Shown: positions 14,536-51,741 of the stretch, one piece after another
How positions within the stretch are numbered: position 1 is the first letter of the stretch
Layout of the letters: the number at the start of each line of letters is the position of its first letter
DNA from: Conidiobolus incongruus B7586
Lineage: Eukaryota
Assembly: GCA_000697335.1 (NCBI GenBank)
Contig: JNEM01009149.1
Span: 1-51,741 of the forward strand
Length of the DNA: 51,741 nt
Direction: 5' to 3'
Position numbers and translations under genes: made by a program
The notes under the pieces: model-generated
Told to the model about the DNA's origin: nothing
What the model saw: only the letters and a program-made list of their open reading frames with translations
Database searches by the model: none

Positions 14536-14898
14536 TGATTTTGGTAAACTATAGCTTTTACAAAGATTCAAATTAGTTATTTTATAATAATATATTCATA
14601 ATATCTAATATTGCATTTATCATATTTTTAATTTAATGGTCAGTTTTTTTTAAAATTTAAACCGAAAATTTTGAAAACTATTACTTACATTTATAAATTT
14701 AACCTTGTTTAATAAATCATAATTAAGCTATGTTAAAAATTTATAATTATTTTGATCTTACATTATTTTGAGGTTGAATTCAGTAATATTAAATAATATA
14801 TACTTTCTATTGATTTTTATCAAGAATTTTAGAATGATAAAATGAATCACAATGAATTATCAATTTTATAAATAATATATTCATTTATTATATTTAAT

Positions 14899-17405
14899 GG
14901 GCTTATTCAAATCTGTCTTGATTCTTGATTTTTCTGATTTTTCTGAAAAATGTTAAAAATGTACTTAATTATAACCTAAAAAAATTCAGTGAACTTTTTT
15001 GATAATTAACTCTAAGTTTTCCTCTTCTCAAACTAAAAAATATATAATATTCATCAAAATCACCTCATAAGTTTTATTTTTTCTTATGCTTAACACAAAA
15101 AAATAATAGAGTAGTTCATTACTTTTACTATAATAAACTTTAATAAGAACTCAGATAATCTAGCAATTTTAAGATTATTATATAAACTAAAAACCTTAGG
15201 ATACATAACTCCACACTTATTATACATACTACACTTGCTATAATAGTCTATATATAAACTTCCTTCTAAAGAAAATGATTTTAAAAGATAGATAAAGATG
15301 TTAAAGGTTAAGTTTTTCTAACTTGCTAATATTTTACAATCATATAAAAATTTCATTTCTTCTTATTAAAGAAAATAAACACCTTTAGAAACTCAATTAG
15401 TAATTACACTTTATTAACTAAGTTACAAAAAAGTATGTTTAAAAGATATAGCAGGAAAGTTATAAATAAGTGAAAGAATTGTTATTTTATATACTAAAAG
15501 ATTAATATACTTTATTAGAGAGAAATTAGATAATTAAATAGTTTAGTTAGAATATCATCATAATATAAAAAAACTTATTTAAAACAACTCTCTTTTAATA
15601 ACTATACTAATTATTTAAATGATAATTATATTTTATTTAGAAATTAGTTTATATTTTAAATTTAATTATATAATAGTAGAAAAAATACATATAATCTTTA
15701 ATATATAGTTATTATATCATTTTCAAATAAATTTATATATTTTGAGTTTAAGAAACCAAAATTATATTATAACTCTAATATTTTAAAAGCATTTAAATTA
15801 TTCAATGAGTTAAATGAATATTATAAACAAAAAGAATATATCTTTATAAATAATAGTAAATAATATAGATATTTCATATTTAAGTTAATTTAATATTAAT
15901 AACAAATAAATATCTTTATTTAATTTTTGTATTTTATAAGTTATATTAATAGTAAGTTTATAGTTACTTTATTTTAAAGAATTTAAATTGAAGTTATCTT
16001 TCTCTTTATAAAGAAAAAAATAGAGGAATTTAATATTATATATAATAAAGAGTAATTTATAATAAAAAAACTTTTGATATTTAATAAACTATTTTTTTGT
16101 TTAAGATTATTGTTTTATTATATACAAAATGTAAAAGCTTATTAATTTATTACTATAGTTATATATGTAACTACTTTCCTTTATAACTTTATTTCTTTTA
16201 ATGAATAAAACTATAATTTTAAAAAAAAGCTAAAAAAAAACTAGTGAAAATATTAATATTAATAATAATAAGCAAAATATAATCAATATATATAATGATT
16301 TTATTAAATTAAATAAATTATAAATAGTAATATTATCATAAATTAACACTTGGTTAATTATTTTAAATGTATTCTTTTGATTATATTTTGTTTTATAATA
16401 AAAATCATATAAATTAACTATTCTTTTTAAAATTCTTTTGCATTAATTATAAGAGTTTTTATTAAAAATTATTGTTGTTCTAATATTTATAAATAATATT
16501 CTTCTTATAATTACTACAGTTTAATTTATTATCTTAAGATTTTATTTTACTCTTGTATGTTTTCTTTAATAACCTTAAAAAAATTAAGTATTTTTTCTTT
16601 TTCTAATATTATCTCTTATATTTTTAAAGCTTTTAATTAAAGAAAACAATAAAAGATAAGAGTTGCTATTACTTTATTCTTTATCATTTAAGTAATTTAA
16701 TTCCTCATAATAAAACTAGTTATATAATGGAGAAGCTATAAGAGTTATATTAAAGGCTTTAAAACCTAAATTATCTTATATTAAAATATATTAACTATTT
16801 TAAATAAAAAGTTATTTCTACTATAGTATTTATTTATTAGAACTTATTCAGCAGTTTTAAATTTGAGAATAAGAGTTTTTACATGAATAAATATTTTATC
16901 AAGTTTTTTTCTCAACTTTATATAATCTACTCCTTTTAAAACAAGGATAAACTTATATATTTGAAAAAAAAGTATTTAAATTGTTAAAACACTAAGATTC
17001 ATAGTTTTCCTCTTGCCTCAACCAACTAAGTATAACTTTTATCAAATGTAGTTCAAGGGAGTCTCTATTATTATTATTAGTATTAATAGTAGATGACATA
17101 AGAGAAAAAACAAGATAAAGCTTAAAAGTAATGTTTTTGCTAATAAATTTATATGGTATTTAGCATAAAAGTTGTTTGATTAATATAGAATAAAGTCATA
17201 CTGTTGTGAATTGCAATGATAAATCTTTAGCTTTATTTTCATATTTTATAAGAGAAAATTAGTGGGTTTTATGAATTGAAAATATTGGTAAGCTATTTTT
17301 TTAACTATTTTTTTTTGATTTTTTTGGTTAAGTAACTGATTTTGGTTTTGGAAAAAATCAGTCAAATTGAAAATCAGAAAAAGTGGGACAGATTTGAGTA
17401 AGCTT
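14899..17405 (+). mobile_element. PIF/Harbinger-superfamily DNA transposon, heavily hypermutated (2507 bp)
   Basis: TIRs GGGCTTATTCAAATCTGTC (14899-14917) / GACAGATTTGAGTAAGCTT (17387-17405), mismatches are transitions only; AAT on both flanks (14896-98, 17406-08); internal relic DDE transposase motifs. Confidence 0.85.
15421..15860 (+). pseudogene. Relic Harbinger DDE transposase core (limits approximate)
   Basis: Observed ISERIVILYTKR..IV*L, FNNYTNYLNDNYILF (15594-15638), YNSRKNTYNL, PKLYYNS (15756-15776) revert by A>G/T>C only to ISEGTVILYTKR..IVWP, FDGCTGYLDGSHIPF, YNSRKxTYSL, PGSCHDS, which are DDE_Tnp_4 motifs; one frameshift near 15570. Confidence 0.8.
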
Positions 17406-18777
17406 AATATATTAAATTTTTGTTTGGAAATACTTATTTATGTGAATTTTTTAATAATTATGATATAAATCAAATCACTGTAATATTTTAAAATATTATA
17501 AAATCAGGTTCTTAAACAAAATTGAAGTTATAATTTTCTAGAAATTAATTAATAGAAAGGCATGAAACTAATAGCATATAATTGAAATATATCTTAAATT
17601 ATTATGAAAATTTATTAAATATCATTATTGATTATTGGTGAATTAGATGAGAGAAAATATAATTAAAATTAAAATATATCAATTATCAAATAATTCAAAA
17701 ATTATGAATATTATTATAAATATTAGTTAATTAGTAGTATAGCCTCAGAGTGTCTATCATCCGTTAATGCTTAAGTTACGTATAATATTCCTTCTATTCA
17801 TAACATTCAATCAAATGGCAACTTGTGAATATTGATGAGGATTAGAATTTGTACCATTAAAATGGTATTGAAAATATTATAGAAAAAATTTAATTCTGAT
17901 TAAAATAAATTATTAATCAATCATATTATTCACTATTATTATGGATCAAATAAATTAATCTATATGATTTTAAAAATAATTTTTTGTAAAGAATTGAAAA
18001 TGTTGATAAAAGGGCAATTATACTAGGTAAGGTAAAGCGAATATAAACTAATATTTTTCTAATATAAAATAAAAAATACAAAATCACTGAACCTAAAACA
18101 TTATTTATTATGATCAGGGCATTCATTCTCAATAATACTATTAATAGTACAGATTAAATAGAATTCTAATGATTAACCCTACCTTCCCGAAAGCAAGCTT
18201 AATGTAATGTAATATTTGTTATATATCAAATTTTGTCAAAATTCTCTAATCAATTATAAAATATTAATCAAAACAACTAAATTTTTCAAATTTTATAGTA
18301 AATATTTAATACTGGTATTTTAATCATTAAATAAAAGATTCCAGGTAATTGACTTAATTGTATATTTATTGGTATGTTCTTTATCCTTTAAATCTAATAG
18401 TAAAATTAAAATTAAAATTAAGTATAACAATCAGTTATTTCGAAAAATCACCCATAATTTTATGTTATTTTTTCACCTTTAATTAATGAATAGATTGTTT
18501 ATCAATTTCTGATATAAATTAGATAAGAGGATTGAATGAGGTGGTATATAGCAAATTGATAATATCTATCAGTCATGCCTTCACCGTAATGCCCAATAAG
18601 GAAATATTATGACACCAAATCCAAACAAACCCCATTTGATAAAATGGCACAAAAGTTTTGAGGTGACCTAGTTGTTTATTATTACCTAATTATTTTTTCT
18701 TATTACAAAAAATTATTATTAGCGATTACTTTTCTTAGTCTTAAGATATTTTTTATTTTTTAAGAAGTGATCTACAC

Positions 18778-20483
18778 ATGAATAATAATGAGAGTTCTGT
18801 GTCGTGTGATATCTGGAGAATTCGAAAGAAGAGATGTGATAGGGAGTTGCCGAAATGTCAAAGCTGTATTAAAAGGGGCGTCGAGTGTAATTATCCCAAT
18901 ATTTCACGTAAAAGAAACATCAATTATACCGTATTTGCTTCTTCTCAAATTAGGCTAAATTTTAAAACTAATAGCAAGGAGCAGCAAGTAGAAAATAGCA
19001 GTAAAAGAGCATTGAGAGGACGTCCTGGAAATTTCATACATAAATATGGGGTACAAATCATGCTTTTTCAACCACTTCCAAATCCAAATTCAGCTCTAAT
19101 TGATAATTTAGCACAAAACTTTATTATTCCAATTGTCTCACAACAGACTCAAAAATTCGAAACACATCTTTTACTCATGCTAACAACGCAGATTGTCCAG
19201 TATGATAAGTTTATTATACCACAAATAGATTCTTTTGTGCAACAATTACAAGTTGGAACTTTTGGCGGATTATTGAAGACAACCTTCTGCATAAATCAAG
19301 AATGGATCAATGGATTGCTTCAACCTGATTTCCAATCTCAACTAATTCTTAACTATTTCACAAGTTTGCACATCATTTATCCTTACTTGTCAAAATATCG
19401 GTTTTTTACAAATATTGATTTTATGTCTCCAAATTTGACAAGTGTAATGTTGTATGTTAGCTACACAACATATCTCAAGCAACATCAGGAATTGCGTAAA
19501 TATCTCAAGCATTCTGCTCTGATCCAACTCAAGAAAAATATGTTTAATGTGATCCTTCAAGTTTGTCGAGCGCTATGTATTTTCAGCTATTTTATGCTAT
19601 TAGAGGGCTTGAGCAAGCAATCATTAGCCTATTTCAATCAAGCTTGTCTCATGGCAACTTCTTTGGGAATCTATAGAGGAATGCCTAATATAAGTTCAGA
19701 AATTCGACATGAAAGACACTGCCTTCAAACCTAGTTAAAAACTCAAGATTGTCATTTGTCAGCTAAAATAAGTTCATAACTATATTTCCTATTTATGGCA
19801 CCCTGCACTAAATCTTTGGATCCAATATATCAAATGGATCCACATCAAACACTACGCGCCGAGTTAGCTTGTACTATGCGCGATTGCTTTAATCTCTATT
19901 GGGCTCCGGGAGCTAGTCTAATGGTCGCATACTCTTTGATGGTATCTACCAAATCAAAATAGTTTCACTGCCAGGACTTTAAGGAAAAGTGCCAGTTTTT
20001 TGGCGAATCATGGACCTATTTCTTTCGAAATTGCTTGATCCGATTTTTAATAATATCAGACCGATACAAGGGTAAAGAAGAGATGCAAATGATCAACAGA
20101 TTGGTGTGGACGCATTGTGGAATTTATTGCCATCTCAGTCTAGTGACATACTCACAACTCCCACCCGCTGTTGATCCAGAAACAAGTGAACTGAATCCTA
20201 GCATCATGAAAGCAATCCAAGCAGCAACCGCCACCTACAGCATCTCTGACCAAAATGCTGAAAATTTTGTGCAAATGTTCTATCACTATCTATCTCAAAT
20301 ATCCTTCTTCTATATCGATATCGCAATGCATTTTGAATCTCACTATCCCACTCAATCCGATGTAATTTCTAAACTGCAACAAGCATAAACTATAATATTT
20401 TTCAAAAAAAGTATCATCAGAAAAATGATACTGTGGGAGTATTGGTATCTATGGTGAACTATTTTAAAATTTAATTGAAATAA
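18778..20483 (+). pseudogene. Zn2Cys6 TF paralog 1, pseudogene
   Basis: Second zinc-ligand Cys is Trp (TGG 18814-16); in-frame stops at 19732, 19777, 19960, 20386 and a frameshift near 20400; homology continues to KKYH..DT..V..SM.NYFKI*LK* ending 20483. Confidence 0.88.
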
Positions 20484-22751
20484 ATATTATGATACAGGCC
20501 ATTATTTTGATAAAAGTTTTTATTTTCATTAATTTATATAGTTGATTTATTTGATATTTATTAATTATATCAAAAATATGATAGTCAATAAGAATACTTA
20601 GAACCGTTATTTTGATCACTATCAAATATTCAATTTTTGACTAGTACCTAAATTGTGATTTTATGTGCTTTTAAATAGTGGTAGTCTATATTATGAGTGT
20701 TTACATTAAGAACATTTAGTATTTTTAATGATATACACACCGAATTCATATAAGAATTATAAAATACTATGTAAAATCAATAAATCTTTGAATAAATAAA
20801 TTATACTAGTGTCACAAAAATTGTATTTTATTAAACTGACTAGAGGATATTCTTAATCATCGTTTTAGGTAAGTAATTAATGATATAAAGCTAAATTTAT
20901 TTATAAAAAATTGAGTATGTTTAATAAAGTAGCATTATAATAGAATATCATGTATAATTGCAAAATATAATATATTATAATGAATATTTCAACATATGAA
21001 CAATTAATTTTATTCAAAATAAGGCTATTTATCATATTCAAAATACATATTAAATGAAATATTTGAAATTGAAGAAAATTATTCTAGTATCCATTCAAAT
21101 AATTATATTTGAAAATGTATCTAATAGAAAAATATAAGTCAGTATTTGATTTCAAACAATTCAGAGTTATCGTTTGGTTAATTTATTCTTATACCACTTA
21201 ACATTCTATAGATATTAGGTTCAAATCATTATTGGTATTCAACAAAGAAAGGTATATTAATCAGAATATATTACATTTTAGATACTAATTGAACATTTAA
21301 TCGATTATTAAAATTAGAATGTAATCAACTTTTAAACATAATTTTAGTATATATCTTTCTAATTGATTGTATTTAAAAAAGCGGTATACAATAATTGATA
21401 TTGAATAATATTATCAAGATAAGGATATATACAGTTTGTCATTAATAATATAATATCAGTAATTAATTACAAAATAACTACAAAATATATCTTAAGGATG
21501 ATTATTCAGATTTTATATGTTTAACGAAAAATAATAACTATCAATAAAGTATGATTTGATTTATTGAATTCATATATTGATACATTCTTTTCATCCTTTC
21601 AAGGGATTAGTTTTGCACTTTAAACATATGTTTTATTATTCCGCAATGAAAATTTTATAATATTCATTTTATAAAGAAATAAATATTTAGATTAATAAAA
21701 ACAACTTATATAATTTATATATATTACTATAGCAAAATATTCACAAGCAAGAGCTAATTTTCTTTAATCATAATTTAAACCCAATTTTATTATACTCAAA
21801 TTTGAGGTACCATTACTACTTTATAGACTGAAATATATTAATTATCCATTCAACAGATATCACAGTGTAATGAGTAAGAAAAAAATGAAATAATTATTAT
21901 TTGCATATATTTTTTGGAAATAAATAATATATCAAATAATATTACAATTTTTTTAAAGATTATGGTATGAATTTTTGATACTTAATGAAAATATACTCAA
22001 ATACACTGTAATTAGTATCAAAGATAATAGTTATTTATCAATACCTTTAGTAAGCAATAAATTATATCCATAGATAAATATTATTGTATAAATTGAAAAA
22101 TTTGCTTGAAATTTATTTGAAATGAAATATCTGATATTTTCAAACTTATATAAATTTTATCAAAATCTGATGTAAATTAGATATCAATATGTTTTAATAA
22201 GTAGAGATTGAATCTTCCAAATGCATGATTAAAAATTAAATTTTACAGGTTAGATATTTCTAGAACTAATTTTAATTATAATAATTGATATGAAACACAT
22301 TTATGGATTTCAAAAATGTCACTTTGAAAGAAACATAAACATTGGGTAGAGTGAAAATATTAGTTCAATATTCAAGATATATAAATGTTATAATATTAAA
22401 AAATTACTTAAATTTATATATTATTGAAAATATCGAAATTTATAAAATTCAGAATTAGAGAAATCTAATAATAATGGATTATAGTTTGTTTGCTTCATTT
22501 ATTTCATTAATGAAATTCTAAATTTTTATAATTCACTTAAAAAATTATTAATAACAACATATCAAATATTAGTAATCATTTAAAAAATGGAAATTCTAAA
22601 TAATTCAATTTATCAAAGCGTTATATTTATTCGATGAAAATATTTATTTTGCTTAAGCATTAAAGGACATTTTTTTATTTAAGGATGATCAATCGCTTAT
22701 AGATGGAAATTGTAACCGGTTAATATAAAATTATGAAAGTAATAACGCAAG

Positions 22752-24461
22752 ATGGTACACGTGACTGAGAGCTTGGTTTCTTGTGATTCATGTCGAAAAA
22801 GGAGGATAAGATGTGGAAGAGAGTTACCAAGGTGTAGGGGCTGTATTAAAAAATGTATAATCTGCAATTATCCAAGCCAACCTCACAAAAGAAGCACAGG
22901 AGAGACAGTTTTTTCATCCTGCGAAAATAAATTAAAATTGAACAAGTTAGAATTAAATAATACCAATCAATCCACATTGCTATTGCATTCAGTGAGCTCT
23001 AATTATAAATTTAAAATTAAACTTTATCAGCCAATGACTGGACTTAGTCCCATATCTACCGACTCGATTGCACATAATTCAGTATCTATGATACAACTGA
23101 AGCAACCTCATAAATTTGAAACTCACCTTTTACTCTTATTGACAACACAAATTGTCAATTATGACAAACAAGTGATTCCCGAAATCGATGCTTTTGTAAA
23201 TAAATTACAATTAGGAATTTTCGGTGGAGTGACCAAAGTGAACTTCCACATGAATCAGGAATGGATCCAAGAGCTATTTCATCCAGACTTTCAAATCAAT
23301 CAAATTAATAACTATTTCGCAACCTTTCACTTGGGCATACCATATCTTTCAAAATATCATTTCTTTACTAACTTGGAAAAAGTTTCATCTTTGCTCAAAA
23401 GTGTAATCATATATATTGGATATGCTAGCTCTCGTAAGCAACATCCAGAATTATTGAAATATTTGAAGCATTGTGCTCTAATCCAGTTAAAGAAAAATAT
23501 GTTCACCATTAATCTTGATATATGTCAAGCTTTATATATTTTCAGTTACTTTATGTTCCTTCAAGGTTTGGTCAAACAATCTTTAACGTATTTCCATCAA
23601 GCTTATCTAATGTCCAGTGCTTTGGGGATCTTTTTAAAAATGCCCAACTTGAGCACAGATCAACGAAGTCAAAGATATTTTCTTGGAACTACTTCCTATT
23701 CTCACGATTCACACTTGGCAGCTACTTTGCGTATGCAACCTTACTTTTTATTTTTAAATCCGACATGGCTAACTTTGGATCCAGTGTATCAGATCAGTCC
23801 ATATTCCGAAGATTCTTGCGAAATGATACATGCAGAGTGCATATGCATCAATAGGATGTGCTTTGTACTCTTTTGGACACCTTCAACCAATCTAATGATA
23901 ATATACTCGCTCATTGCTGCCAAACAACCCACTACTCTTGATCTTAATACCACAGTTCATAGAATTCGAATTCTTGAATATCTATTCGATTTATGCCTAA
24001 TTAAATCTTTAGAAGTCTACTTGGAATTATCAAAAAAATACAAACAAGAAAATGAGCTCAATATTATCAAAAAATCAGTATGGATAATTTGTGGCCTATA
24101 TTATCATTTGAAAATTCTGTTATACTCTCAAGTTTCCCCGACTGTGGATCCAAATACTGGAAATCTCAATTCAGACACACTAAAAGCAATGAAAGCAGCT
24201 ACAGCTATATATAATATTACAATGTGCGATCCAGAGTGTTGTATTCCGATGTTTTATCATCATCTATCACAGATTTCGATGCTTTATATCAAAACAATTC
24301 TAGTATTAGACAATTATCCTCGCATAAAACTCCAACTCACTCAAAAATTAAGAGATATTTATAAATTATTTATATATTTTAAAAAAAAGTATCATTTTTC
24401 AGAAGATACTTTGGAAGTGATCGAATCAATGGCAAATTATTTCAAAATACATATCAAATAA
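22752..24461 (+). CDS. Zn(II)2Cys6 transcription factor with fungal middle-homology region, paralog 2 (569 aa, intronless)
   Basis: CDSCRKRRIRCGRELPRCRGCIKKCIICNYP = Cx2Cx6Cx6Cx2Cx6C; YFxxFHxxxPYLSK...AYLMSSALGI MHR-like segment. Confidence 0.93.
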   Translation: MVHVTESLVSCDSCRKRRIRCGRELPRCRGCIKKCIICNYPSQPHKRSTGETVFSSCENKLKLNKLELNNTNQSTLLLHSVSSNYKFKIKLYQPMTGLSPISTDSIAHNSVSMIQLKQPHKFETHLLLLLTTQIVNYDKQVIPEIDAFVNKLQLGIFGGVTKVNFHMNQEWIQELFHPDFQINQINNYFATFHLGIPYLSKYHFFTNLEKVSSLLKSVIIYIGYASSRKQHPELLKYLKHCALIQLKKNMFTINLDICQALYIFSYFMFLQGLVKQSLTYFHQAYLMSSALGIFLKMPNLSTDQRSQRYFLGTTSYSHDSHLAATLRMQPYFLFLNPTWLTLDPVYQISPYSEDSCEMIHAECICINRMCFVLFWTPSTNLMIIYSLIAAKQPTTLDLNTTVHRIRILEYLFDLCLIKSLEVYLELSKKYKQENELNIIKKSVWIICGLYYHLKILLYSQVSPTVDPNTGNLNSDTLKAMKAATAIYNITMCDPECCIPMFYHHLSQISMLYIKTILVLDNYPRIKLQLTQKLRDIYKLFIYFKKKYHFSEDTLEVIESMANYFKIHIK

Positions 24462-25044
24462 ATATTATTATATATTGCTATTAGTATTTTTTAACTCTCT
24501 AGCTTTGATTTGCATTCTATAATTTTAATATCCTGTATTTAATATTAGATATTGGTTTAATAATGATTGAAGCAAATAACAACTCAGATCCAAACTCTTC
24601 TATAATTTTATATAAACCACAAAATAATAAATTTTGAATTCAACTGAAATTAAATTTAATTACATAATAAATGAAATAAAATTATTTGTTTATGATCGAT
24701 AGAATTGCAAGTAAAGTATAAAATATTTTGATAAATTTAAAGAAAATCTATTACTAATATATTAATTATTCAGTTATGGAATTATAAAATATATTACACT
24801 TGTCAAGATAGTATAATAGTTCATTTTATTTTTACATATTATTGAAATTATTTTTCAATTTTAATTAAATAATTATTTTAAAAACATCTAGTTGATAAAA
24901 TGTAACCAAGGATGAAAAATTGTAAAATATATATTAAACACGTCATATTTATTTTGAGTTTAAATTTAAAGTATCAACTTAATGATATTTGTATAGTTTT
25001 ATCAAATTTAGAAAAGACTAAATATAATAATGTATATAACATTG

Positions 25045-25398
25045 TGTTGTATTTATAAGTTTTATAATTAAAGGTCATTGTTGCAAAAGTACTTGTAATA
25101 TGATTTAGTAAATTATTTATTAATCCTGCTCTTTAATGTATTGGGACTGTATGTCTAAAAACTTACTGTTGAGACATTGTAGTAGAATATCCAGAAAAAC
25201 TTTCTTTCTATCTTTATCACTTTTAGGGTATAAATAGTTGATTCAATGAAGGATATGGGGTTTGGTTAAAGTTTAACAGAGTGGACAAAGAGAACAAAAA
25301 GTATCGTTTAATTATAGGCTGACAAAGCCAGCTTAAAATAAAAATAGTATTGGTTTGGCTATCAAACTGGGATAGGAGGTTAATTTTGAAATACAACA
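25045..25398 (-). mobile_element. Solo LTR, family A copy 1 (354 bp)
   Basis: Perfect 10-bp terminal inverted repeat TGTTGTATTT / AAATACAACA; aligns end to end with the reverse complement of 30345-30706 (GTATTGGGACTGTATGTC vs GACATACAGTCCCGATAC); flanks ATTG/ATAG. Confidence 0.8.
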
Positions 25399-25585: not shown

Positions 25586-27313
25586 CTATTTAATAGGTTT
25601 TAATTGAATTTTGAAATGACTAGCCATTGTTTCGATTACATCCAAAGTGTCTTCAGAGAAGTGGTATTTGGCTTTAAATTGAATAAATAAAATATAGATA
25701 TCTTGTAACTTTTTGATAAGCCCTAATTGAATATGAGGATATTGCTTGATTTCCAGTATTATTTTGATATAAAATAATGATATTTGGAATAGGTAATGAT
25801 AAAACATTGTAACACAACTCTCTGGATTACTTGATGTGATATTATAAATTCCTGTAGCAGCTTTAATTGCTTTCAATGTGGGCCAATTTAGTTGTTGTGT
25901 TGTTGGATTGATAGTTGAATGCAGCTGAGAGGATAAAATTAAATTCAAAGTATAATACATTCCACAATGTGACCACACTGATGCCTTGATAATATCTTTC
26001 TCGGGTTTTTTAATATAAACTTGTGATAGATTCAAATATCGTTTGAGTGTATTGATAAAAGAATAATTAAATAGCTGATTGAGATATTGGATTTTCTCAA
26101 TGAACAACTCCTTATCCAACTCAGTTGATTTTTTTGATAACATTAGTGAATAAATCACCATCAAATTGGTTGAAGGAGTCCAATATCGGTTAAAACAGTC
26201 TCGAGTTATGCATGTACATTCGGCCAATAATTTTTCGTTAGAATCTGAAGAGTAAGGATTAATTTGATAATTTGGGTCTAATGATTTAAGATGGGGTCCT
26301 GTATATTGAAAATAAGGCTGGATTCTTAATGTGGCAGCCAAATGAGAATCTTGAGAATACGAAGAAACTCGGAGAGACTGCCGGTCTTGTTGAATTTCTG
26401 GATGGATATTAGGGATATCTGTGTGAATTCCCAAAGCAGAGGACATGAGGCATGCTTGATTGAAATAAGATAGCGATTGTTTTGCTAGACCTTGAAATAA
26501 CATTGAGTAGCTAAAAATATACAAAGCTTGGCATGTACTAACACTAACTGTGAACATATTTTTCTTGACCTGGATAAGGGCGCAATGTTTTAAATACTTC
26601 AACAGTTCAGGATACTGCTTAGGGTGATTAGTGTAACCTACATATAATATTACGCTCATTAAAACAGGTGAAATTTTTTCAATATTAGAGAAAAAACGGT
26701 ATTTTGAAAAATATGGATGTACTAAGTGAAATCTACTGAAAAAGCTATTGATTAACATATTTTGAAAATCATGACGAAACAATTCTTTGATCCATTCTTG
26801 ATCCATGTGAAAGATAAGTTTAGCTTGTCCTCCGAAAATTCCCGCTTGTAATTTAGAGATAAACGGTTCAATTTTGGGGATGATATCCTGATCTATTTCA
26901 ATAATTTGAGTCGTTAGTTTAAGAATAAGATGTGTTTCAAATCTTTTATATTCATTTCGAGGAGTCAGAATACAAAATTGTGGATATATATCCTGGCTCA
27001 AAGTTGACTTGTATGATGAAATAGGTTGGTATAAAATAAGATTTCCTTCATTTTTGAGCGATTGCCTTTGGTATCTGTTTTTCAATAAGTTATTTTTTCC
27101 AACCTGTAAACGTTTACCACCAATTCGAAAATATAATTTGTGTAGAGTAGAGGAAAAAACAGTATTCTTGATGTGACGTTTATGAGATGTATTCGGGTAA
27201 ATGCAATTTACATTCTTTTTAATGCATCCTAAGCATTTGGGTAACTCTCTCCCACATCTTTTTTTGCTAATCCTACAAGAATCGCAAGAAACTGAGTTAT
27301 TTTGTATTTCCAT
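25586..27313 (-). CDS. Zn(II)2Cys6 transcription factor, paralog 3 (575 aa, intronless; only paralog on minus strand)
   Basis: CDSCRISKKRCGRELPKCLGCIKKNVNCIYP; colinear similarity to paralogs 2 and 5; TATATAAA-like box at 27391-27398 upstream. Confidence 0.93.
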   Translation of the reverse strand: MEIQNNSVSCDSCRISKKRCGRELPKCLGCIKKNVNCIYPNTSHKRHIKNTVFSSTLHKLYFRIGGKRLQVGKNNLLKNRYQRQSLKNEGNLILYQPISSYKSTLSQDIYPQFCILTPRNEYKRFETHLILKLTTQIIEIDQDIIPKIEPFISKLQAGIFGGQAKLIFHMDQEWIKELFRHDFQNMLINSFFSRFHLVHPYFSKYRFFSNIEKISPVLMSVILYVGYTNHPKQYPELLKYLKHCALIQVKKNMFTVSVSTCQALYIFSYSMLFQGLAKQSLSYFNQACLMSSALGIHTDIPNIHPEIQQDRQSLRVSSYSQDSHLAATLRIQPYFQYTGPHLKSLDPNYQINPYSSDSNEKLLAECTCITRDCFNRYWTPSTNLMVIYSLMLSKKSTELDKELFIEKIQYLNQLFNYSFINTLKRYLNLSQVYIKKPEKDIIKASVWSHCGMYYTLNLILSSQLHSTINPTTQQLNWPTLKAIKAATGIYNITSSNPESCVTMFYHYLFQISLFYIKIILEIKQYPHIQLGLIKKLQDIYILFIQFKAKYHFSEDTLDVIETMASHFKIQLKPIK

Positions 27314-29442
27314 TATAGCAAATGCAATAAATTGGATTCATCTCATGTAAAAATTATCAAAAAATGTTATCGTTCAACTCCAATATTGGGTTTATATATA
27401 CAAATCAAATTGAATTTCATTTATCAATATTCACCTCAAAGCTATTTTAGAAAATCAAAGGTATTAGGCTTTTTATATTGAATGTTATCTAGTTCAATAA
27501 GGTAGGTTTATTTTGTGAATTATAATTTTCATTTCAGTTTTAAAAATTAAACCAAATAAGTATTAATAAAGTTTGTAGAAAACAAAATATACAATTCATA
27601 TTAAAAATAAATTCAACATATAATTAATACTCTTTAAAAACTGGAGATATAATGGGGTTCCTTTTTAAAATAAGTACATAAAACTTATCAATTGCATTAT
27701 CTATTTAAATATGCATTCAATTGATCTATAGATATTGCTTGATTTAGGTATTTGAACGAAGCTTTTACCTCAATAAAATATAAATCGTTAATGAACAAGA
27801 GTAAACTAATTAATTTATTTGGAAATAAAATCTCCTGCCTTTAATAAGTATTCAATCAAAAATACTCAATATTATTTACAGTTCAGGAGAGGATATTTAA
27901 ATTTAATAGGATAGCTCATAGTGAATAATTTTTATTAGTTAATCAAGTCAAATTAAACTATATTGATATAATATAAATAACGAGTATATAAGAGTAAAAA
28001 GGTCTTAAAATAGATTCTTGGTCAAATACACAACAATTGCAATATTGGTTTCATTTAACTAAATATTATATGAAATCTTCTAAATTATGATGAATATAAT
28101 ATGTAATAATTAGGTAGCCAAGTTCTCGTTTTGGTTTATATATCAATTCTCATCTGTTATTCGACATTTGCAGGGCCCTATTGTATTTTACTGGCTTCAG
28201 CAAACCAAGGTGTATTTATATTAATCAAATCTGTGGAAAATGTTAATTTTTTAATATTAAACATCCTCCTTTTCTACAACCCCGACTTCATAATAACACT
28301 TTCAAATCGATTGTTGCCTGATGATTATGCATTAGCAACAATACGAACTTTGTCAGCTAATATCTTTTGATATAATGGTTAATTGTATTTTCATTAGAAT
28401 ATATTCCAAAATTAATTTCATTACACATATTGTTATATGTAACAAAATTATAAAAATTTTTCATAATTTTATATTCTTCATTTTCATTCAATTCAATTTT
28501 TTGATTGATTATATTAATCATAATCTATATGTTTTTAAAACACCATTATTTATTAAAAATCATATACATATCAAATTAAATAAGACAGTAAGAATTAATT
28601 TCTAAATTTTGATTTTATTATAACACAATTCTTCAAAATGAAAATATAAAAAACATTTATTATAATTTGGACAATAATGCAATATAATAATTATTTCTCA
28701 TTAAGTTATAAAAGTTACAATTTAATCAAAATGAATGTCAGTATTGTAATAAAATTCATTCCAATTAATTGATTTCCAATATAAATTAAAAATATTAATA
28801 AAAAGGAATAAACTAAACAATTTCTTAAATAAGTATATCCGATATATTATGATTAATATTTTGAATTTTTCATTGTGATTAAAAATGAGTGTATTATATC
28901 AAATAATTTCTCCATCTATTTTTAATTTAATATATAATATCAATCGAATAAATTTTCAATATTAATATATGGCCATTTTCCAAAATATCTTAGATAATTT
29001 TATAAATTTATTTTCTGCATTATTTAATTTGTCAATATAGATAAATTTAATAATTATATAACCATATTTATAGATAAATAATATAAGTTATTCGGTCCAA
29101 ATATTAAATTTATGTTTGTGTAATCATTAGCATATATCTCATTTTCTATTAAAATCCATTTTAATTATCAAATTAGAATAAACGATAGATATTACTTTGT
29201 ATCTTAAATTTTTATTGCACATAATCAAATTCATATATTATTATAAAAAATGGACCTAATTATATTATAAAAATGATCAAGTATTCATTCTATGTTTAAC
29301 CAAAATTATTCCAAGTCTATCAATAACATTAGGATTATAGAATGCTTATCAGATTTAATCAAGTGATATATGCAATGTCTGATATATATTTGGCTTTGAT
29401 TTTTAATTACGTTAATTTGATTTAAATTAGGGATTATGAAAA

Positions 29443-30344: not shown

Positions 30345-30706
30345 TGTTCTATTTTGAAAATACCCATCTGTCTCGATTTGATAGTTAAATCCATATTACC
30401 CCTCATTTATAGTGGCTATTTCAGTCCATAATTAAAGAATATTCTTTGTTCTATTTGTTCTCTTAGTTAGATTTTAATCAAATCCTATATCATTCACTGA
30501 ATCGACTATTTAAACTCATTAGTGGTAAAGAGAGGAAAAGAGGTTTTTGTGAATATTCTGCTACAATATCTCAACAGTAAATCAGATTCAAGACATACAG
30601 TCCCGATACTTTAAAGAGCAAGCTTAATAAATAATTTACTAAATGATATTATGAGTTTTTTCCTAACAATGATCCTTATTTACTAAACTTATTAAAAAAC
30701 ACAACA
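30345..30706 (+). mobile_element. Solo LTR, family A copy 2 (362 bp), inverted relative to copy 1
   Basis: TGTTCTATTT...AAACACAACA termini; colinear with reverse complement of 25045-25398; AATAAA ~30626; flanks ATGA/ATTA. Confidence 0.8.
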
Positions 30707-32095
30707 ATTATAAATATTATTTAAATATTAATTAGCAACGTTGTTTTATTAATTCCTTTATATATGAAATGATAAACTATAAATTGAAATATTACACTTT
30801 AAAATATGAAGTAATTAGTGATTAAATTTTTCTTTGTTATTTCAACTTAGTTTATAAATATTATTTTGATGTTCTATTTTTAATGTATAGCAATGATCAT
30901 GGTTATTTTAATTTATTAAATATATCTCATATTATGGATAAGGGTTAAAACAAATCTTATTATATATAAAAAAATTAAAGTGTAAGTCTCTTTCAATTAA
31001 TATATTTCGAATTAACAACTTTATTGAGCTTATGCTGAAATTTCACTGATTTAAGCTCTCAACGTCAATATTGAACAACTCATTAATTGCATATTATATT
31101 TTATAGAATTTAATAAGTATCTTTGATCAAAAATATTAGAGTTATTATCCTCAATCTATATATTATGATGAATAAAAATCCTTATCCTTCTCAATATATT
31201 GATGAAACCTTCACTCAGATCAAATCATATGAGCTTAATGTAGAAACGCTAATTTTGACAGGTTCAAAAATTTCATTTTATCAATTTTTCTAATTAATAT
31301 TCATTTCAACTCATTCGATATAAATTTGTATTTTTCAAATAATAATTTACAAATTGTGTAGTTTTTTCATGATAACAGAATATTAACTAAACTATATTAA
31401 TCGAGAGGGTTCTAAATTACATTTAGCAATTTATTTATATAATTTAAAGAAAAAAAGATTAGTATTTGTGCTCTGAAGCAATATTTTTCATTCATAAACT
31501 TTAATTAGATTGAATTGAATATTAAATAAATTATTATTGATTATTTATAATTGGAATTAAATTAGAAATATTATGTGTAAAAGTAACGAATATATTTATT
31601 TACACCAATGTTATAATATTTATAATTTGATTCAATATTAAAGTAAATAGTATACTAACTATTTAATATAGTTTAAGTTGTAATATAGAAAGGGTTTTAA
31701 ATTGGTGATCAATGAAAGACAAAAATTTGGCTTAAATTATTGTTATTGGATCATTATAAATATTTGCAAATGCTTTATAATACCAATTATATACTAATTA
31801 GTAAGAATAGATTTAAATTATATGAGCTACATAGTGGTCAATAACAATAATTAATTAAATAGTCAAATATTAGGGAGCAAAAGTGGAATCAAGTTGATTA
31901 ATCATAAGAGAAAAATTCTTAAAAATTAATCTGATTAATTATATATAAATGGATATAAAAAATTAAGTGAAAAATATAACAATAAATTTTTCAAAGGAAC
32001 TCGTATATCTCTTTTATATTTATATTCATACTAAATAATCTAAACATTGGATGGCATATCATAACTTACTTGCATTCAAAATCTGATAAAATATG

Positions 32096-38638: not shown

Positions 38639-39894
38639 ATCAAATAGATATATTAATAGTTATATTAAAACTGATCACCAGTTTATTAAACTTAACATAG
38701 GATATTCATACGAATCTAAAGATAATAGCATAAAAATATATTATTAATAGTGTAATTATTAAATGAATGGATGCATTAAATCAAGAATTCAAGAATTAAT
38801 CAAGTTTGAATTAAATTTAATTGAATTAGATAAATAAGGTATAAAAAAATAAATATTAAATGTGTCTCAATTGATATTTAGAGAAAGTAACTTAAATTTT
38901 GATTTAAACCGAATAAGTTGATAAGTAAGTGAATATAAATGTTTTTAATATTATAATCTTTATCTTGATTGATTAAAAAATACTATGATAAATAAATCAA
39001 GGATGCTACTAAATTTATTTTACTAAAAAATGATAAAAGTATTTAGCTTAAAGATCAAAAACCATGATTACAGAATCCAGTACAAAATTATATAAAAAAG
39101 AATATATAATATTAGATGATATAGATACTAATAGCATATTATTATTTCCAACCACTTCAAAAAAATAAATAATGATAGTATATAAATTAGATATTTAAAT
39201 ACAAATATTATTGTTTTATGTAAGAGGAATAATATAAAAACGTTTATTTAATAAAATAATATTTAAATACAAACAGCTAAAATTATCAAAACTTAATTTA
39301 TTTAAAATAACTGAACTTTAATACCATATTTACCAGCTATAAATCCCTGTTGATATTATTGTTTTGATGATTTATAGAATTTGAACCAAGGAAAGAGATT
39401 TAATGATACTTCTCTATGTAAAAAATAGGGGTGCAATTTTGAAGATATATTCTAAAAAATTATGTGAACGTGTTAATTAATAATATTATAGAATTCTGTT
39501 ATTTGAAAGTGAGGAAGTTATTAATGATCAAAATGAAATAATTTTTTTCTAGCTATTATTTTGTTAAATTAAATTTCAAAATTGGTGTACTTTTATAATT
39601 ACGTTTTATTATGAATAGATGTATTGTCTCTATATAAAGATACATATAATAACCCATATATACCATAGTATTGGGTAAAATCTATCATTATATTGTATTA
39701 AGAAGCATAGTAAAATTATCCGATATCGCATTATCATTAGTGAAACTTAAAAAATTTGAAGCCCATGTTAGCATAATCGTTGAGGCGGTTCGTTTAAAAC
39801 CATAATTAAAGTTTTATAACTTTTAAATACATGGAGTTCATCATCAATTTTTGGTCTTGTAAAAATTATTCCTATCTGCTGGATTGATAACAAT

Positions 39895-41598
39895 ATGGAA
39901 GAGAGGAAAGAAAGTTCCGTTTCTTGTGATACTTGCAGATTGAGAAAAATTAGATGTGGTAGGGAGTTTCCAAAATGTAAATATTGTACCAAAAAATCTG
40001 TCTTTTGTAATTATCCTAATCATTCTCATAAGAGGTCGAGTCAAGTTACGGAGTTTTCGTCGTCGCAAAATGTTTTGAATTTCAAAAGGAGTGTTGAGAA
40101 ATTAACGAAGAAAAATAATATAGTATTGAGGAGATCTAGAAGGCCACATTCTTATTATGATATTCAGATAATTTTTTACCAACCCAGCCCCAATCCAAGT
40201 AAAACTTCACCCTCCGATAATTCACACGATCTGATAAGCGCTCTAAGTAAAAGAAAGTTCCAACAATTCGAAACCCATCTGATATATATGTTAACGACGC
40301 AAATCATCCAAAACAACGTTGAAATAATACCCGAAATTGAAGCATTCGTAAGCAAATTACAGTTAGGGATATTCGGAGGGGCAATTAAGCTGCATATTCA
40401 TTTGAGCCAGGAATGGATCCGAGAGCTTTTTCATCCCGATTTTCAAATGAAACTCATCCAATGCTACTTTGAAAATTTTCACGCGGTTTATCCTTATTTT
40501 TCAAAATATAAATTTTACACCAATTGTGAAAAGATTTCTCCAGTGTTGAAGAGTGTAATAATGTACGTAGGATATACGAGTTATTCTAGGCAGCATCCCG
40601 AACTCTTGAAGTATTTGAAGCATTGTGCCATGATTCAGCTTAAGAAAAATATGTTTAATGTTAGTATTGATGTATGTCAATCTCTGTTTATTTTTAGTTA
40701 TCATATGCTATTTCAGGGATTGGCCAAACAATCGCTGGTTTATTTCAATCAAGCATGTTTGATGTCTTCCGCTTTGGGAATCCATATGACAATACCCAAT
40801 ATTAGCCCAGAGTTTGAAAACGAAAGACATTCACTTCGCGTCACATCACATGCTCAAGATACACACATAGCCGCAAATTTGGGCATTCAACCCTATTTCA
40901 TATTTCTAGATCCCCATCCTAAGCGTTTAGATCCAAAGTACCAAATTAATCCATATTCCAAAGATTCATACGAGCAAATCCGCGCAGAATGCACATGTCT
41001 AACACGAGATTGCTTCAATCAATATTGGACTCCTTCAACTAGCCTAATGATGGTATACTCACTAACAACATCTAAACAATCTGAAAATTTCAATCAAAAA
41101 ATCAAAATCCTCAACCAACTGTGCAACTATTCATTTATCAACACCCTCCGAAAGTACTTGCAACTCAGCACTCGACTAAAAACCCCTGAAGAGATAGACA
41201 TAGCAAAAAAATTTGTTTGGGCTCATTGCGGTATGTACTATACACTGACACTCATTTTATTCTCCCAACTCCCTCCCACAATTGACCCCTGCACACAACA
41301 ATTGGATATGGGCACTTTGAAAGCGATTCAGGCTGCTACCGCATTGTATAACATCACATATAGCGATCCTGAAAGTTGTGTAGTAATGTTCTATCATTAC
41401 GTATCACAAATTTCTCTATTCTATATTAAAACTATACTTCATCTCGAACAATATCCTGAGATTCAAAAGGAGTTAAAAAAGAAGCTGAAGGATGTTTATC
41501 AATTATTTATTAGATTGCAGAAGAAGTACCATTTATCAGATGATACTTTGGAAGTGGTTGAAAGTTTAGCTAAATATTTTAAAATTGGATTAAAATAA
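39895..41598 (+). CDS. Zn(II)2Cys6 transcription factor, paralog 5 (567 aa, intronless)
   Basis: CDTCRLRKIRCGREFPKCKYCTKKSVFCNYP; colinear similarity to paralogs 2 and 3. Confidence 0.93.
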   Translation: MEERKESSVSCDTCRLRKIRCGREFPKCKYCTKKSVFCNYPNHSHKRSSQVTEFSSSQNVLNFKRSVEKLTKKNNIVLRRSRRPHSYYDIQIIFYQPSPNPSKTSPSDNSHDLISALSKRKFQQFETHLIYMLTTQIIQNNVEIIPEIEAFVSKLQLGIFGGAIKLHIHLSQEWIRELFHPDFQMKLIQCYFENFHAVYPYFSKYKFYTNCEKISPVLKSVIMYVGYTSYSRQHPELLKYLKHCAMIQLKKNMFNVSIDVCQSLFIFSYHMLFQGLAKQSLVYFNQACLMSSALGIHMTIPNISPEFENERHSLRVTSHAQDTHIAANLGIQPYFIFLDPHPKRLDPKYQINPYSKDSYEQIRAECTCLTRDCFNQYWTPSTSLMMVYSLTTSKQSENFNQKIKILNQLCNYSFINTLRKYLQLSTRLKTPEEIDIAKKFVWAHCGMYYTLTLILFSQLPPTIDPCTQQLDMGTLKAIQAATALYNITYSDPESCVVMFYHYVSQISLFYIKTILHLEQYPEIQKELKKKLKDVYQLFIRLQKKYHLSDDTLEVVESLAKYFKIGLK

Positions 41599-43009: not shown

Positions 43010-46000
43010 TTATTTCGACAAATTGCGAATCATAGCGTTCAGGTCTAGATTTAAGAGCCTACGAACCTCATTAATAGACTGCATCGATTCGTCGCCATGA
43101 TTTTTGTCAGGATGCTTCAATGTTCGGTTTTGGATAGGGTCTTCAGAGGTTGGAAAGTTGAGTGTTTTGAATTGCAACGGTGGTGTTTCGGTGGGTTGGG
43201 GAGGTGGTGGGAATTGAGGCATGAGTTTGTCGCGACGGAATTGGGGATCAAAATTGTTCTGAGTTGACTTGAGGATTAAGTTAAGTTTTTTGAACATTAG
43301 ATCGTGATAATGTGATTGATTCACTTCCTTTCTTACGACCGGGACTTCGGTAGCGATATTTTGATTATTAATCACTTCTGAAGGCTTTGGTGCTTGACAT
43401 GATTTTTTAGCTTCTTCAATGAAATCTAATACATTTCCAACATGGATTCGAGGGTCGAAGTCCGTGGGAAACCTCGTACAATCTAACCTAGATTTATACT
43501 TATAGCACTAAACAAACCATTGGTAAAATTCAAAAAAAAGAAAAATTATACAAATTACCCAATCAATCCAATAACAGCTCACCAACTCAGTACCTGGGAA
43601 CTCCTTCACAATTTTTCTGGAGGTAAACTCTGGCTTGCAACTAGATCGAAGATTTTGGACGATATGGGTAGTTTTTTCGAAGGGTTTGAAGCATAGTTCA
43701 CCACCCATCTCCGAAATCTTCTGCTTGAAATCTCGTAAGGTGGCGTCATCGAGATTATCTAAGTAGATTACGTATCCTTGCATAATGTGGGTGATATCAG
43801 TGCGATGGAATGGTTGATCCGCGATTGAAGCTGAAAAAACTGGCTGCGATTTGGGTATTGTATCTGCCTTTGTAACTGGAATTGGGGTAGATTCAGCAAT
43901 TTGAGGTGGCTTCGGAGTTAGAAAGTGAGTAGTGGGCCGTATATCAGATGACTTCATTTGAAGCTCAACATTTGTCAAACTCAAATGATTCTTACCGGTT
44001 CTGATAATTTTATAAATTTCGTCCACATCGATGATTGGAATTCCCTTACGTTCGGCTCTCATGGTCTTTTTGCTTTTAAGTTTGGCATTGGCATTAACTA
44101 GATGCGTACATTTAGAATGAAACACTTCTGAAGTGTGTGCACCTAATCTCTTTAGCACTTTCATGAGGTGACTTCTTTCGAAGAAATGTACATTGGTAAA
44201 GACAAATACAAACATGTCAAATCCTAATTGAAAATATATTAGAATGATAATAAAGTTATATATTCGACTTACCTGGGATAGGCTGACAAATATCCAAAGG
44301 TTGGAATAATATATTGTCAGAAGTATTATAAAACATTTGGTCCTAAAAATCAGTCAATATTTGATAAATATAATTGTCAATTGTTATTACATTGATGCAT
44401 CTTTCAATCCAAAATTCCGTAGCGTAGAAATTACTCTTCTTGGGATTTACAGCAACACTTCCGTCGTATGGCAAGATACACATCGTTGGAGCTTTGGGTA
44501 TTGGTTCTGATATTACCACACCGCCACAATATTGGATCGATTCCTCAATTCTTCTGCTCTAAAATCAAATGATTAGATTTCAATCTTTTGGCCACTTATA
44601 ATCATTACATCTTCCTCAGAAAAACCATAAATCAAAAATTTAAAATATTTGAAAATGCCTAAACTCTCAGGAGTTGAAGTTTCCTGCTCGCTAGAATGGA
44701 TTTCCGTTACAGCTGTGGAGGTGCTGGATGTAAATATCATCTTTGACTCATATTTGACCATTGGTGTATTTTGATTCTGTGTCCAAGCACCAGTTTCTGA
44801 ATCTACCAAATATTTGGTTTCGTCAATCAACTTTTGATGATAGTGACAGTCTTCTATCCAGTTGGATTGCACGCATTTCACCTGGGATTGATCAATACTT
44901 GAGAGTAGTTTGAGATCTTCAGGAGTGAAGCCAGACCTCAACACGATGAAATGGGTAATATGTCGAATGGAGTCTTTGTCATGAATGTATCCGTGTCCTG
45001 TTTCGATCATGTGTTTGATATGTTTTTGAAGATATAATATATCTTCGGGTAAATAGATATGACAACCTGAGAAATATTTGGTAGGATCACCTATACAACA
45101 TGGATTAATTTTGATTTTTCAAATTTGGAATAGGTATATTACCTTGACCGTCATAAGAATTAGGAGCACCGTATGGAAATTTGGTCAAAGACTGAAACAC
45201 TAGTCATGAGCAAAGTAAGCATATAATAAATGGTGCAATTATTAGCATTTACCCAAAGATTTTTCACACTCCAAAATCCAATTCAAATTGACAACTCTAA
45301 ACTTGTCATTTTTCATAACCGATATTGAATCAAATGAAAACACATATCTATTGTAAAAATTGGAATTAAGGAATAATAACAAATCATAAACTTATAAATG
45401 ATATAGAGTGTTATATATGAAAAAGGATATAGTTAAAGCAATAATATTCGTTTCGGGATTGATTTTTGCATCTAATTTACCACCTAAATTTTTTATAATT
45501 TGTTTAAATTTTAAAAATTCTAATCAAATAGTTAGATGAAATATGTTGTATAATTTAATGTATTTTAATATATATTTACCAGTATCTTTATGCGAATCAA
45601 ATCCCAATATGATGAAATTTAAATTGTGAAATGGTAAGAGCTTAAAATTTGATAAAAGCTAAAATGTTATTAATTATTCAATAATAATAATTATAAAATT
45701 TGATATATATACTTGTTCCAAATTCACATTATTGGTGTTGCTATCTTCCAGCTTAGTCAGAAAATTAGGATGTAATATAGTGATATTTTTATCGACAGCT
45801 TTCTAAGCTCTTATCGTTAAATATTATTTAAATAATTTGGGGATAGATGTTTACCCTATAACTTGCAGTATTCACCGCCTTGCAAATATAATAATTCACC
45901 TTATTATCATCGATTTGATCCGTTTCTTGGCCTCCAAATCTTATTATTTTTTGTTTTAATGAAATCTATTAATAAAAAATTAATATAAAACCCTTTTATA

Positions 46001-49637: not shown

Positions 49638-50589
49638 ATTCTAACATAATAGTATTGAAGTTAAAAATATTGGAATTTTATAAAATTCAAAAACATTGCT
49701 AAATGAAATATAATTTTTTTTATTTAATAATATATAAAATCATTAAAGACTGTCAAATAGCTCAACCCAAAAATATGTATTTATGATACTTGCGATTTTA
49801 TATATATATATATATATTTATTATTATTCAACATTAATCTCAAAGAACCAGAATTTTCCTTAATATTTGGTGGATATTAATATTACTTTTTTTTATTTGT
49901 TGTTTGTATTTAATTTTATATCCATTAAAGTTTATTAATATGAATTTCAGCATTTAAAGTTTCATAAATTTATGAATTTTCAATATTCTATATTATGTTA
50001 TTTAAAAAGGCTACAAAAAGATTTCTAAAATTTTATAGACTCTATAATAAAGTTATATTTGTATATAATTAATAATGCTTTTGATTATAAAGCCAAATTG
50101 AAGTAACTAAAATTCATTAAATATTTTCACTATGATAATAATTTCTTAATTTTTATAAACCATATATTTTGAAAATTGAATAGTTTGCCAATAAATTATC
50201 TTAATCATTTGAAAATATGCTTGAATATTATATTCATACTTTGTATTCTATTGATATAGAGATTTAATTTATTAATTTTTCAATTAGAATATGAATCAAA
50301 TTACAATTTTAAATAAATCCAAAAACTTGAAGCATAATAATTTTGTAATACTAATAATAATGATAGTAGATATTAAGTTCAAACTATTGAAGATTCAATA
50401 ACAGAATCTATTAAAAATTAGAAATTCATTAATATATATATATCAATCTCTTTGCTTAATTTCAGCAAATTGATATTTAAATTTTATTTTGAAGTATTAC
50501 TTTGTAATTTAAATAATGGAATTTTTTCTGATTGAAAAAAAATATATATTTTAATATATAAAAAGTAACAATAAATATATAATATAAAA

Positions 50590-51610
50590 TTTTTAATTTC
50601 CTCTATTTCTAATAACTTTTTGCTATACTTTTAACAAAGATATAATACTTAAAAATAATTCTTTTTATTAAAAACTAAAATTTAATATTTTACAAACCAA
50701 TTAAATTTTTTTGTAAAGTTTTTTTTTCTTATAAATTAGTTTTTTAATTGCCTAAAACAATTATAATTACATAAGATATAATCTAAATAATATACTAGAT
50801 GTGGTAGTTTTTTCCAGTTATTTTCAATTAGAAAATTTTTTATAAATTTAAATTTATGTATTTTATAATTATTATGTAAAATAATAAGTTTTCTCAAATT
50901 ATATTAAAAATACTAATTCAAAATAAATTTATTTAAAAAAAATATAAAGTTTATTATTAATTAATTTTCTTTTAAGAATTAAATGAAAATAATATATATT
51001 ATTATAATCTATTAAAATAATTTATTTTCACTTATTAAAAAAGTGTTTATTTAAAGGAATTTATAAAAAGGGTTGATTTAACTTAATCTAAAACTTTAAT
51101 TTATTTTTTAATAAAAGATTATATAAATAAACTTAAGATTTATAAAATTATAATAATTTATTATAAAATTTTAACTTCTAGCTATATATTAGTAAGTCTT
51201 GTTTGATAATAATTACCCTAGTTTTTTTTAAGCTTTAGTTAAATAATAAAGTATTTATTTTATATTTTTATTAATTAATTTTAATATAAACTTTAATATA
51301 TATAAAACACTTATATAACTAATATTAAAATGTTTTAATAATTCTTTAACTAAAATAAAAAGATACTTTTTAATATATTTTTCTATTTTATTAATAATTA
51401 TAAATATAATAATTGAAATTAATCTTTAAGATTTTAATAAGTTTTAGGTAGTTTTATTCTTAATTTTAAAATAATTTACCTAGTGATAAATTGTTGAATT
51501 AGATAATACTTTATCATTAAAAATAGCTTGTAAATTTTAAATGATTTTAAAGGATTTATGGTTTAGTTTTATTAATACTAAAATAAAAAACTTTTAATAT
51601 TTATTATTTA
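50590..51610 (-). mobile_element. Mariner (DD34D) transposase relic, hypermutated; element probably extends past window end
   Basis: Minus strand: *ILYYL (51257-51240, from WVPHYL), KS*VYLYN (from ESWVYLYN), IILHNN (50873-71, from HDN), WKKLPHLVYYLDYILCNY (from WEELPHPAYxPDxAPCDY), SLLKV*QKVIRNRG (from LPxxWQKVI); exactly 34 codons between 2nd and 3rd catalytic positions; start approximate. Confidence 0.88.
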
Positions 51611-51741
51611 TTTCAAATATAATTAAATTTAAAAACTAATTTTAAAATATTTTTTTAATCAAAAAAACTATATACATTAACCTACAAAAATAAGTTATAA
51701 AATCAAAAATATATATATTTTAATTAATAACTAAAACAATT

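Follow-up and report, generated by a model that had tools for sequence, protein, structure and literature searches.

The process of repeat-induced point mutation, or RIP, is pairing-dependent, premeiotic and driven by RID. Reports of RID come almost exclusively from Pezizomycotina (PMC5751038, PMC4352252). In Zymoseptoria tritici Dim2 drives mitotic CA>TA mutation in repeats (PMC8016269). Phycomyces transposons carry CG and CHH methylation, and the same work describes little 5mC for most Mucoromycota and Zoopagomycota (PMC11258239). For the Entomophthorales a RIP-index signal has been reported, with Zoophthora radicans at 24.2%; table 1b of the same paper seems to give no RIP entry for N. thromboides or C. 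coronatus (PMC11105155). RIP outside Dikarya is already proposed in print (PMC11105155). Whether a mutational repeat defence exists beyond Dikarya is disputed, with PMC11105155 arguing from indices in Entomophthorales and a kingdom-wide screen (PMC12543289) detecting recent signal in ascomycetes only. Our literature search, confined largely to open-access papers, returned no report on DIM-2 and cytosine methylation in Entomophthorales and none on RIP with CpA hypermutation of transposons in Mucoromycota.

The window considered here (the whole stretch of DNA analysed, 51 741 nucleotides) carries at 14899-17405 a dead, multi-copy transposon of the Harbinger superfamily, 2507 bp long, with the following parts.

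14896..14898, plus strand: left target-site duplication, AAT, of the ANT type, identical to the AAT at 17406-17408 (a single insertion was examined)
14899..14919, plus strand: left terminal inverted repeat (TIR), 21 bp, starting with GG and sharing 16 of 21 positions with the right TIR
15256..15555, plus strand: N-terminal part of the transposase, in the frame of 14899, with eight stops and a match to protein P0020
15570..16200, plus strand: DDE part of the transposase, in the frame of 14901, with the motif chain, in which the first D falls at 15618, PGSxHDS spans 15756-15776 and the second D is at 15849 or 15852
16200..17099 (end approximate), minus strand: likely second ORF, tail to tail with the transposase
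17385..17405, minus strand: right TIR; contig depth drops about tenfold past 17407
17406..17408, plus strand: right target-site duplication, matching the left AAT

The initial annotation had described a Harbinger element bounded by TIRs, and the boundaries proved correct. All five mismatched positions between the TIRs are transitions; at two positions of the left TIR, 14906 and 14918, C makes up ∼88% of the depth contributed by other copies, and summed contig depth goes up at the left TIR end. Short subterminal repeats of the TTTTCTGA type lie inside both TIRs (14920-14950 and 17355-17385) and are possible candidates for transposase-binding sites. A scan of metagenomes for the TIR gave nine loci, every one unrelated outside the TIR word; 16 loci matched in prokaryotes.

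The N-terminal piece of the transposase, translated with X at stops, had a sole match among 1.84 billion representative proteins, to P0020 (E-value 6.2e-4; 24 of 80 residues identical over 15280-15519; 47.9 bits, against a maximum of 24.4 in 108 control frames). The modelled fold of P0020 has neighbours in the DDE_Tnp_4, Plant_tran and HARBI1 clusters, with scores below the bar for naming a family; P0020 used as a query found no match in viral contigs, plasmids or PDB. The reading frame shifts near 15556-15570, and downstream of the shift TTAAATGAT at 15615 and CCAAAATTATATTATAACTCT at 15756 become LDG and PGSxHDS, in a common frame, by A>G and T>C changes only, as the initial annotation had read them. 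By itself PGSxHDS is weak, being reached in 103 of 2000 shuffles. Under transitions one of six frames contained the ordered chain of four blocks (LDG, YxNRK type, PGSxHDS, ADS type); under A>C/T>G no frame did. Shuffling of codons produced the chain once in 2000 trials, and all 114 control frames lacked it; in its choice of motifs the chain test is partly post hoc. The region of the E residue (∼16050-16090) reads by eye as frameshifted. Pfam assigned no transposase family to the mutated transposase frames, and word-indexed homologue searches with the two transposase pieces gave 0 of 208 and 0 of 8 candidates, with no eukaryotic DDE homologue. A profile built from seven bacterial DDE_Tnp_4 proteins proved too distant, scoring the element at 17.5 bits and controls at up to 22.8.

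Together with TIRs, a 3-bp duplication and dispersed copies, a transposase of the DDE_Tnp_4 type (P0020 match, fold neighbours and motif chain) places the element in the PHIS/Harbinger superfamily. That part of the initial classification holds. Canonical PIF/Harbinger elements make a TWA duplication, and ANT defines Pangu (PMC4482050). We observed AAT on both sides, and shifting the ends outward by one base gives TAA and ATA, which are still unmatched. As AAT fits ANT and not TWA, the element is better filed as Pangu/Harbinger2-like. With Pangu it shares the ANT duplication and a TIR within 11-40 bp that starts with GG (or AG) (PMC4482050), as well as two ORFs, of which ORF2 has no known domain (PMC4482050, PMC12730594). 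On the other hand, autonomous Pangu elements average ∼3.5 kb, against 2507 bp here, and the fungal hosts given there are ascomycetes and basidiomycetes (PMC4482050). Of the three minus-strand frames, two have 37 and 54 stops, whereas the one starting at 17099 has 24 in 333 codons. It is the likely second ORF and may resemble ORF2 of fungal Harbinger elements; in its mutated form it gave no Pfam family, Myb/SANT included.

C-to-T changes on both strands have stripped the element of all its CpG and, by our estimate, of between a third and a half of the C/G it once had. The GC content of 0.17 proves nothing on its own, since intergenic DNA of the window is itself at 0.19. The evidence lies in sequence context, and the segment that carries it, together with one other segment of the window, is as follows.

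15068..17151, strand not applicable: hypermutated core, with CpG and CpA lost and TpA gained; the maximal-scoring segment under a model trained on 15301-17000 of the element
50535..51741, strand not applicable: second tract with the signature of the element, cut by the window end, GC 0.11

There is no CpG in the 2507 bp (15.3 expected, P 2e-7), which bears out a count made by eye in the initial annotation, and all four NCG contexts are at zero. Within the core, of 855 pyrimidines followed by A, 97 are C (0.11, against 0.22 in intergenic DNA; p 1.5e-14), and of 97 followed by G none is. Both strands are hit equally, and 212 of the 332 surviving C/G lie within CT/AG, compared with ∼35% in intergenic DNA; the initial annotation had noted damage to both strands and the CT/AG context. 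The contexts rank CpG > CpA > CpC > CpT in order of loss, with YCA (CCA, TCA) most depleted and ACT nearly spared (0.28, against 0.29 in CDS). GC falls to 9-16% in a trough in the middle of the element, compared with 19-29% near the ends, and in the terminal 169 and 254 bp CpG is lost while CpA is retained (0.35 and 0.36).

In 1-kb windows the ranges of the element and of the rest of the stretch are disjoint for CpA observed/expected (0.64-0.82 against 0.83-1.38), for CpT observed/expected (1.40-1.58 against 0.58-1.21) and for TpA/ApT (1.10-1.19 against 0.60-1.05). The composite RIP index is 0.22-0.57 in windows of the element. Elsewhere it peaks at 0.03, whether all 452 overlapping windows are considered or just the 144 of them with GC ≤ 0.21. 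For the whole element the composite, product and substrate indices are 0.32, 1.14 and 0.82, which pass thresholds of >0, >1.1 and <0.9. The index check proposed in the initial annotation set the element apart from the rest of the window. The two outcomes that would have spoken against its reading, changes confined to CpG and a context matching neutral intergenic DNA, were not what we saw, given the halving of CpA in the core and the disjoint ranges.

The direction of change was assessed with the 75 codons aligned to P0020. The log likelihood was −221.9 for C>T/G>A loss on both strands at p 0.5, compared with −252.8 for no loss, −232.6 for C>A/G>T, and −235.3 and −236.8 for single strands. Of the 51 mismatches, 15 were rescued by A>G/T>C (6.1 expected by permutation, P 2e-4) and 7 by A>C/T>G. 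In local search the no-loss and G>A-only versions scored 53.3 and 54.7 bits, against 47.9 for the both-strand version; since these scores are equal or better, local search demonstrates homology and not direction.

Other copies of the family were studied as contigs from four runs of one sample, aligned at ≥80% likeness. Per run, 763-846 contigs align to the element and depth steps at both TIRs; in run X1 summed depth is 18-56 in bins wholly outside the element and 88-527 inside. The element is plainly multi-copy, though depth does not equal copy number. Depth in X1 is highest at the ends (∼400-530) in comparison with much of the middle (90-240). The same run gave 825 places with transitions and 330 with transversions; A<>T changes among copies account for 207 places. 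At G/C sites the hazard of C>T across copies is 10-14 times that of C>A. The 40 best-supported differences, each with the other letter in 5-34 contigs, include 15 transversions. Among the longest contigs of other copies divergence amounts to 12-18% of sites, and 290-500 aligned bases contain 0-17 gaps. The family is old. The initial claim of few indels holds for some long contigs, which have no gaps at all, and fails for others with up to 17 and for the frame change at 15556-15570. Raw Ts/Tv among copies is 2.4-2.6. For a non-coding segment present twice in the window it is 1.3-1.6 (56:44, or 52:33 by BLAST count); the copies lie only modestly higher (Fisher p 0.002 against 56:44).

At some 0.7-0.8 of the G/C sites at least one contig has A/T, and G/C occurs at 471 of the A/T sites; this would bring the family GC to ∼0.36, like that of host genes (0.34). 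On the lineage of the 14899-17405 copy 160-264 C/G were lost after subtracting plausible back-mutation; this is a 2.5- to 29-fold excess over neutral expectation, a range that comes from the assumed copy number (5-25) and back-mutation rate. In every one of the four runs a single contig connects 14823 with 17428 and leaves out the element. The ends of this joint are imprecise, and we rejected it as a precise empty site; either a deletion allele or an AT-rich match by chance could explain it. Other contigs skip internal stretches close to the two ends (14962-15155 and 16910-17364), which suggests that the family has deletion derivatives.

We simulated the loss with host CDS as a stand-in ancestor, on which the context estimates also depend. 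Decay limited to CpG leaves GC at 0.32 and CpA observed/expected at 1.34 (observed 0.17 and 0.79), and ‘CpG plus uniform’ loss gives a composite index of −0.24; thus, both CpG-only decay and context-blind drift fail in simulation. A Neurospora-like preference for CpA, with assumed rates, produces CpG at 2.6 and CpA at 0.13 (observed/expected), compared with 0 and 0.79 in the element. The best fit on the grid, with CpG fixed high, was CpA 1.0, CpC 0.6 and CpT 0.4 (score 17.3, against 56.6 for equal rates).

The damage comes in two tiers, both visible in a single window: CpG-only loss at the element ends and in the segments 46100-47481 and 49795-50534, and combined CpG and CpA loss in the cores. 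The tract at 50535-51741 scores 69 bits under the element-trained model and is the sole other such segment in the window; its CpG loss is total and C before A stands at 0.08 (p 1e-16). It gave no transition-blind diagonal with the element above shuffle and is unrelated to it in sequence. Low-complexity BLAST matches between the element and 50.5-51.7 kb, and the inverted repeat I7 linking them, reflect composition and do not indicate a second copy. The adjoining 49795-50534 forms a CpG-only halo (CpG 0 against 4.6 expected, CpA normal). In 46100-47481 CpG is likewise absent (8.6 expected) with CpA normal and GC 0.23; CpG-only decay fits better here, and the segment is a possible example of it beside the heavier kind. 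Pfam found no family in this segment; what is presumably a hAT-like C-terminal motif was seen by eye near 47190-47300.

The initial annotation had proposed a RIP-like or methylation-driven defence. C>T change on both strands, confined to the repeat and exceeding CpG decay or AT drift, is what we found; between the two options the context points to methylation, as CpG is the most depleted dinucleotide, CpG-only halos exist and the copies carry transversions and indels. The scar is likely one of methyltransferase-driven transposon defence rather than of classical RIP. We give a probability of roughly one half to the reading that host DNA methyltransferases acting on silenced repeats drove C>T over many cell generations. 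In a first tier, CpG methylation of the DNMT1/DNMT5 type over repeats and their edges would strip CpG; in a second, non-CG activity of the DIM-2 type in repeat interiors would drive CpA>TpA over time, as Dim2 does during mitosis in Zymoseptoria.

The excess of CA>TA in a transposon expected of Dim2-type mutagenesis is indeed present. Both here and in Zymoseptoria repeats undergo C>T change in which CpA falls and TpA rises, in Zymoseptoria over time and without sex; there, however, CG is unmutated (PMC8016269), while here CpG is wholly gone, and the host here probably lies outside Ascomycota. As Dim2 in Zymoseptoria mutated CA and not CG, a second process is required for the CpG loss (PMC8016269). 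Loss or methylation centred on CpG is known from the TpCpG hypermutation of transposons in Pucciniomycotina (PMC3318451) and from Phycomyces (PMC11258239). In our element, though, all NCG contexts and not just TpCpG are emptied, and CpA, CpC and CpT are hit as well (PMC3318451). The 5mC of Phycomyces is highest at the ends of transposons (PMC11258239), the part that CpA loss spares in our element. The Entomophthorales study has in common with ours a RIP-like dinucleotide signal outside Dikarya, measured there by genome-wide indices and here resolved for one family by codons and copies (PMC11105155). For a fungus with a U12 intron, the family supplies evidence, from codons as well as from copies, that C>T targeting with a defined context extends beyond CpG. 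If the scar is methylation decay, RIP indices would misfile such genomes.

The strongest alternative, which we regard as unlikely, is true RIP or an independent equivalent: duplications would be sensed by pairing and hit by RID-like bursts of C>T at the sexual stage, with CpG methylation adding the CpG loss. The heavy loss on both strands (p ∼ 0.5) in repeated DNA, a positive composite index, the preference for CpA among non-CpG sites and the untouched adjoining genes are all shared with RIP of Neurospora crassa and other Pezizomycotina, and loss confined inside the TIRs with a trough in the middle speaks for it too. In Neurospora, however, CpA is the top target with no special loss of CpG, and the corresponding simulation leaves CpG enriched; here CpG is the top target, the CpA bias is milder (substrate index 0.62-0.93) and ordinary decay is substantial. 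Retention of CpA at the element ends, where contigs are deepest, speaks against it, although RIP likewise fades at repeat ends, and 15 transversions among the 40 best-supported differences do not fit it. In its favour, paralogues of Zn2Cys6 transcription factors in the window keep their CpG and share only 66-74% DNA identity, a divergence too high to probe a duplication trigger; their Ts/Tv is near 1. Besides its index, Z. radicans has enzymes with a RID-like domain layout, but the authors state that these candidates cannot count as RID homologues (PMC11105155). Also, of 1239 genomes screened, those with recent mutation directed at repeats all belonged to four ascomycete classes (PMC12543289). 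If the change was pairing-triggered, RIP would be extended by a deep branch.

It is more doubtful still that an early-diverging fungus has a homology-sensing mutator of its own, with RIP having arisen without RID or predating Dikarya and with a distinct target, CpG > CpA > CpC > CpT with a 5′ pyrimidine favoured. If true, mutational genome defence would have originated as far back as the base of the terrestrial fungi.

Ordinary ageing, i.e. CpG deamination together with AT-biased mutation of the host acting on an old, unselected transposon, is improbable. The GC of the element is close to the intergenic value, long contigs diverge by 12-18% with indels, A<>T changes are numerous, and with the least favourable assumptions the loss exceeds neutral expectation only 2.5-fold. 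Yet decay of 5mC at CpG should confine changes to CpG and raise CpA/TpG, opposite to what the element exhibits, and under drift the dinucleotides should come to resemble those of intergenic DNA, from which CpA, CpT and TpA/ApT are disjoint; the negative index of ‘CpG plus uniform’ loss also disagrees, and the core has gone below intergenic GC while the TIRs, the flanking duplication and long frames persist.

Editing of repeat DNA without methylation by an AID/APOBEC-like cytidine deaminase, host- or element-encoded, is the least credible account: a 5′ pyrimidine does seem to favour loss, and a 5′-base preference is typical of such enzymes, but loss depends most strongly on the 3′ base (G, then A), as it does with methyltransferases, the two strands are affected to the same degree, and a DNA transposon is not known to have a long single-stranded stage.

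The preferred reading, in which methyltransferases act on silenced repeats, concerns a host probably outside Dikarya. An early-diverging host with U12 introns had been suspected in the initial annotation, and one such intron was found.

45353..45430, minus strand: U12-type AT-AC intron, 78 nt, within the multi-BRCT gene 43010-45520

The intron starts with ATATCCTT, has a branch-like site TTCCTTAAT and ends in AC; the frame opens on splicing and contains a stop if unspliced. The exon upstream of it matches BRCT positions 24-46 of 78 (E-value 0.037), so that the intron splits the BRCT domain. The intron points to a minor spliceosome in the host. Minor introns are reported to be absent from Dikarya (PMC10639083), which suggests a host outside this group. 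The Zn2Cys6 factors and Vps53 mark the host as fungal. For Vps53 the best named match is Basidiobolus (36%), and in the tree the window sequence sits on a long branch with support of 0.76. Five proteins of the window gave no exact match in a protein collection. One intron and one gene point to a host that is likely early-diverging.

Two further duplications were observed in the window. The Zn2Cys6 paralogues are clustered at 18745-20388, 22746-24461, 25586-27337 and 39820-41598, with a further copy likely near 35200; the first of them looks split. A non-coding segment is duplicated in inverted orientation at 25026-25398 and 30345-30721; its two copies are 75% identical and CpG-poor, with 1 and 3 CpG.
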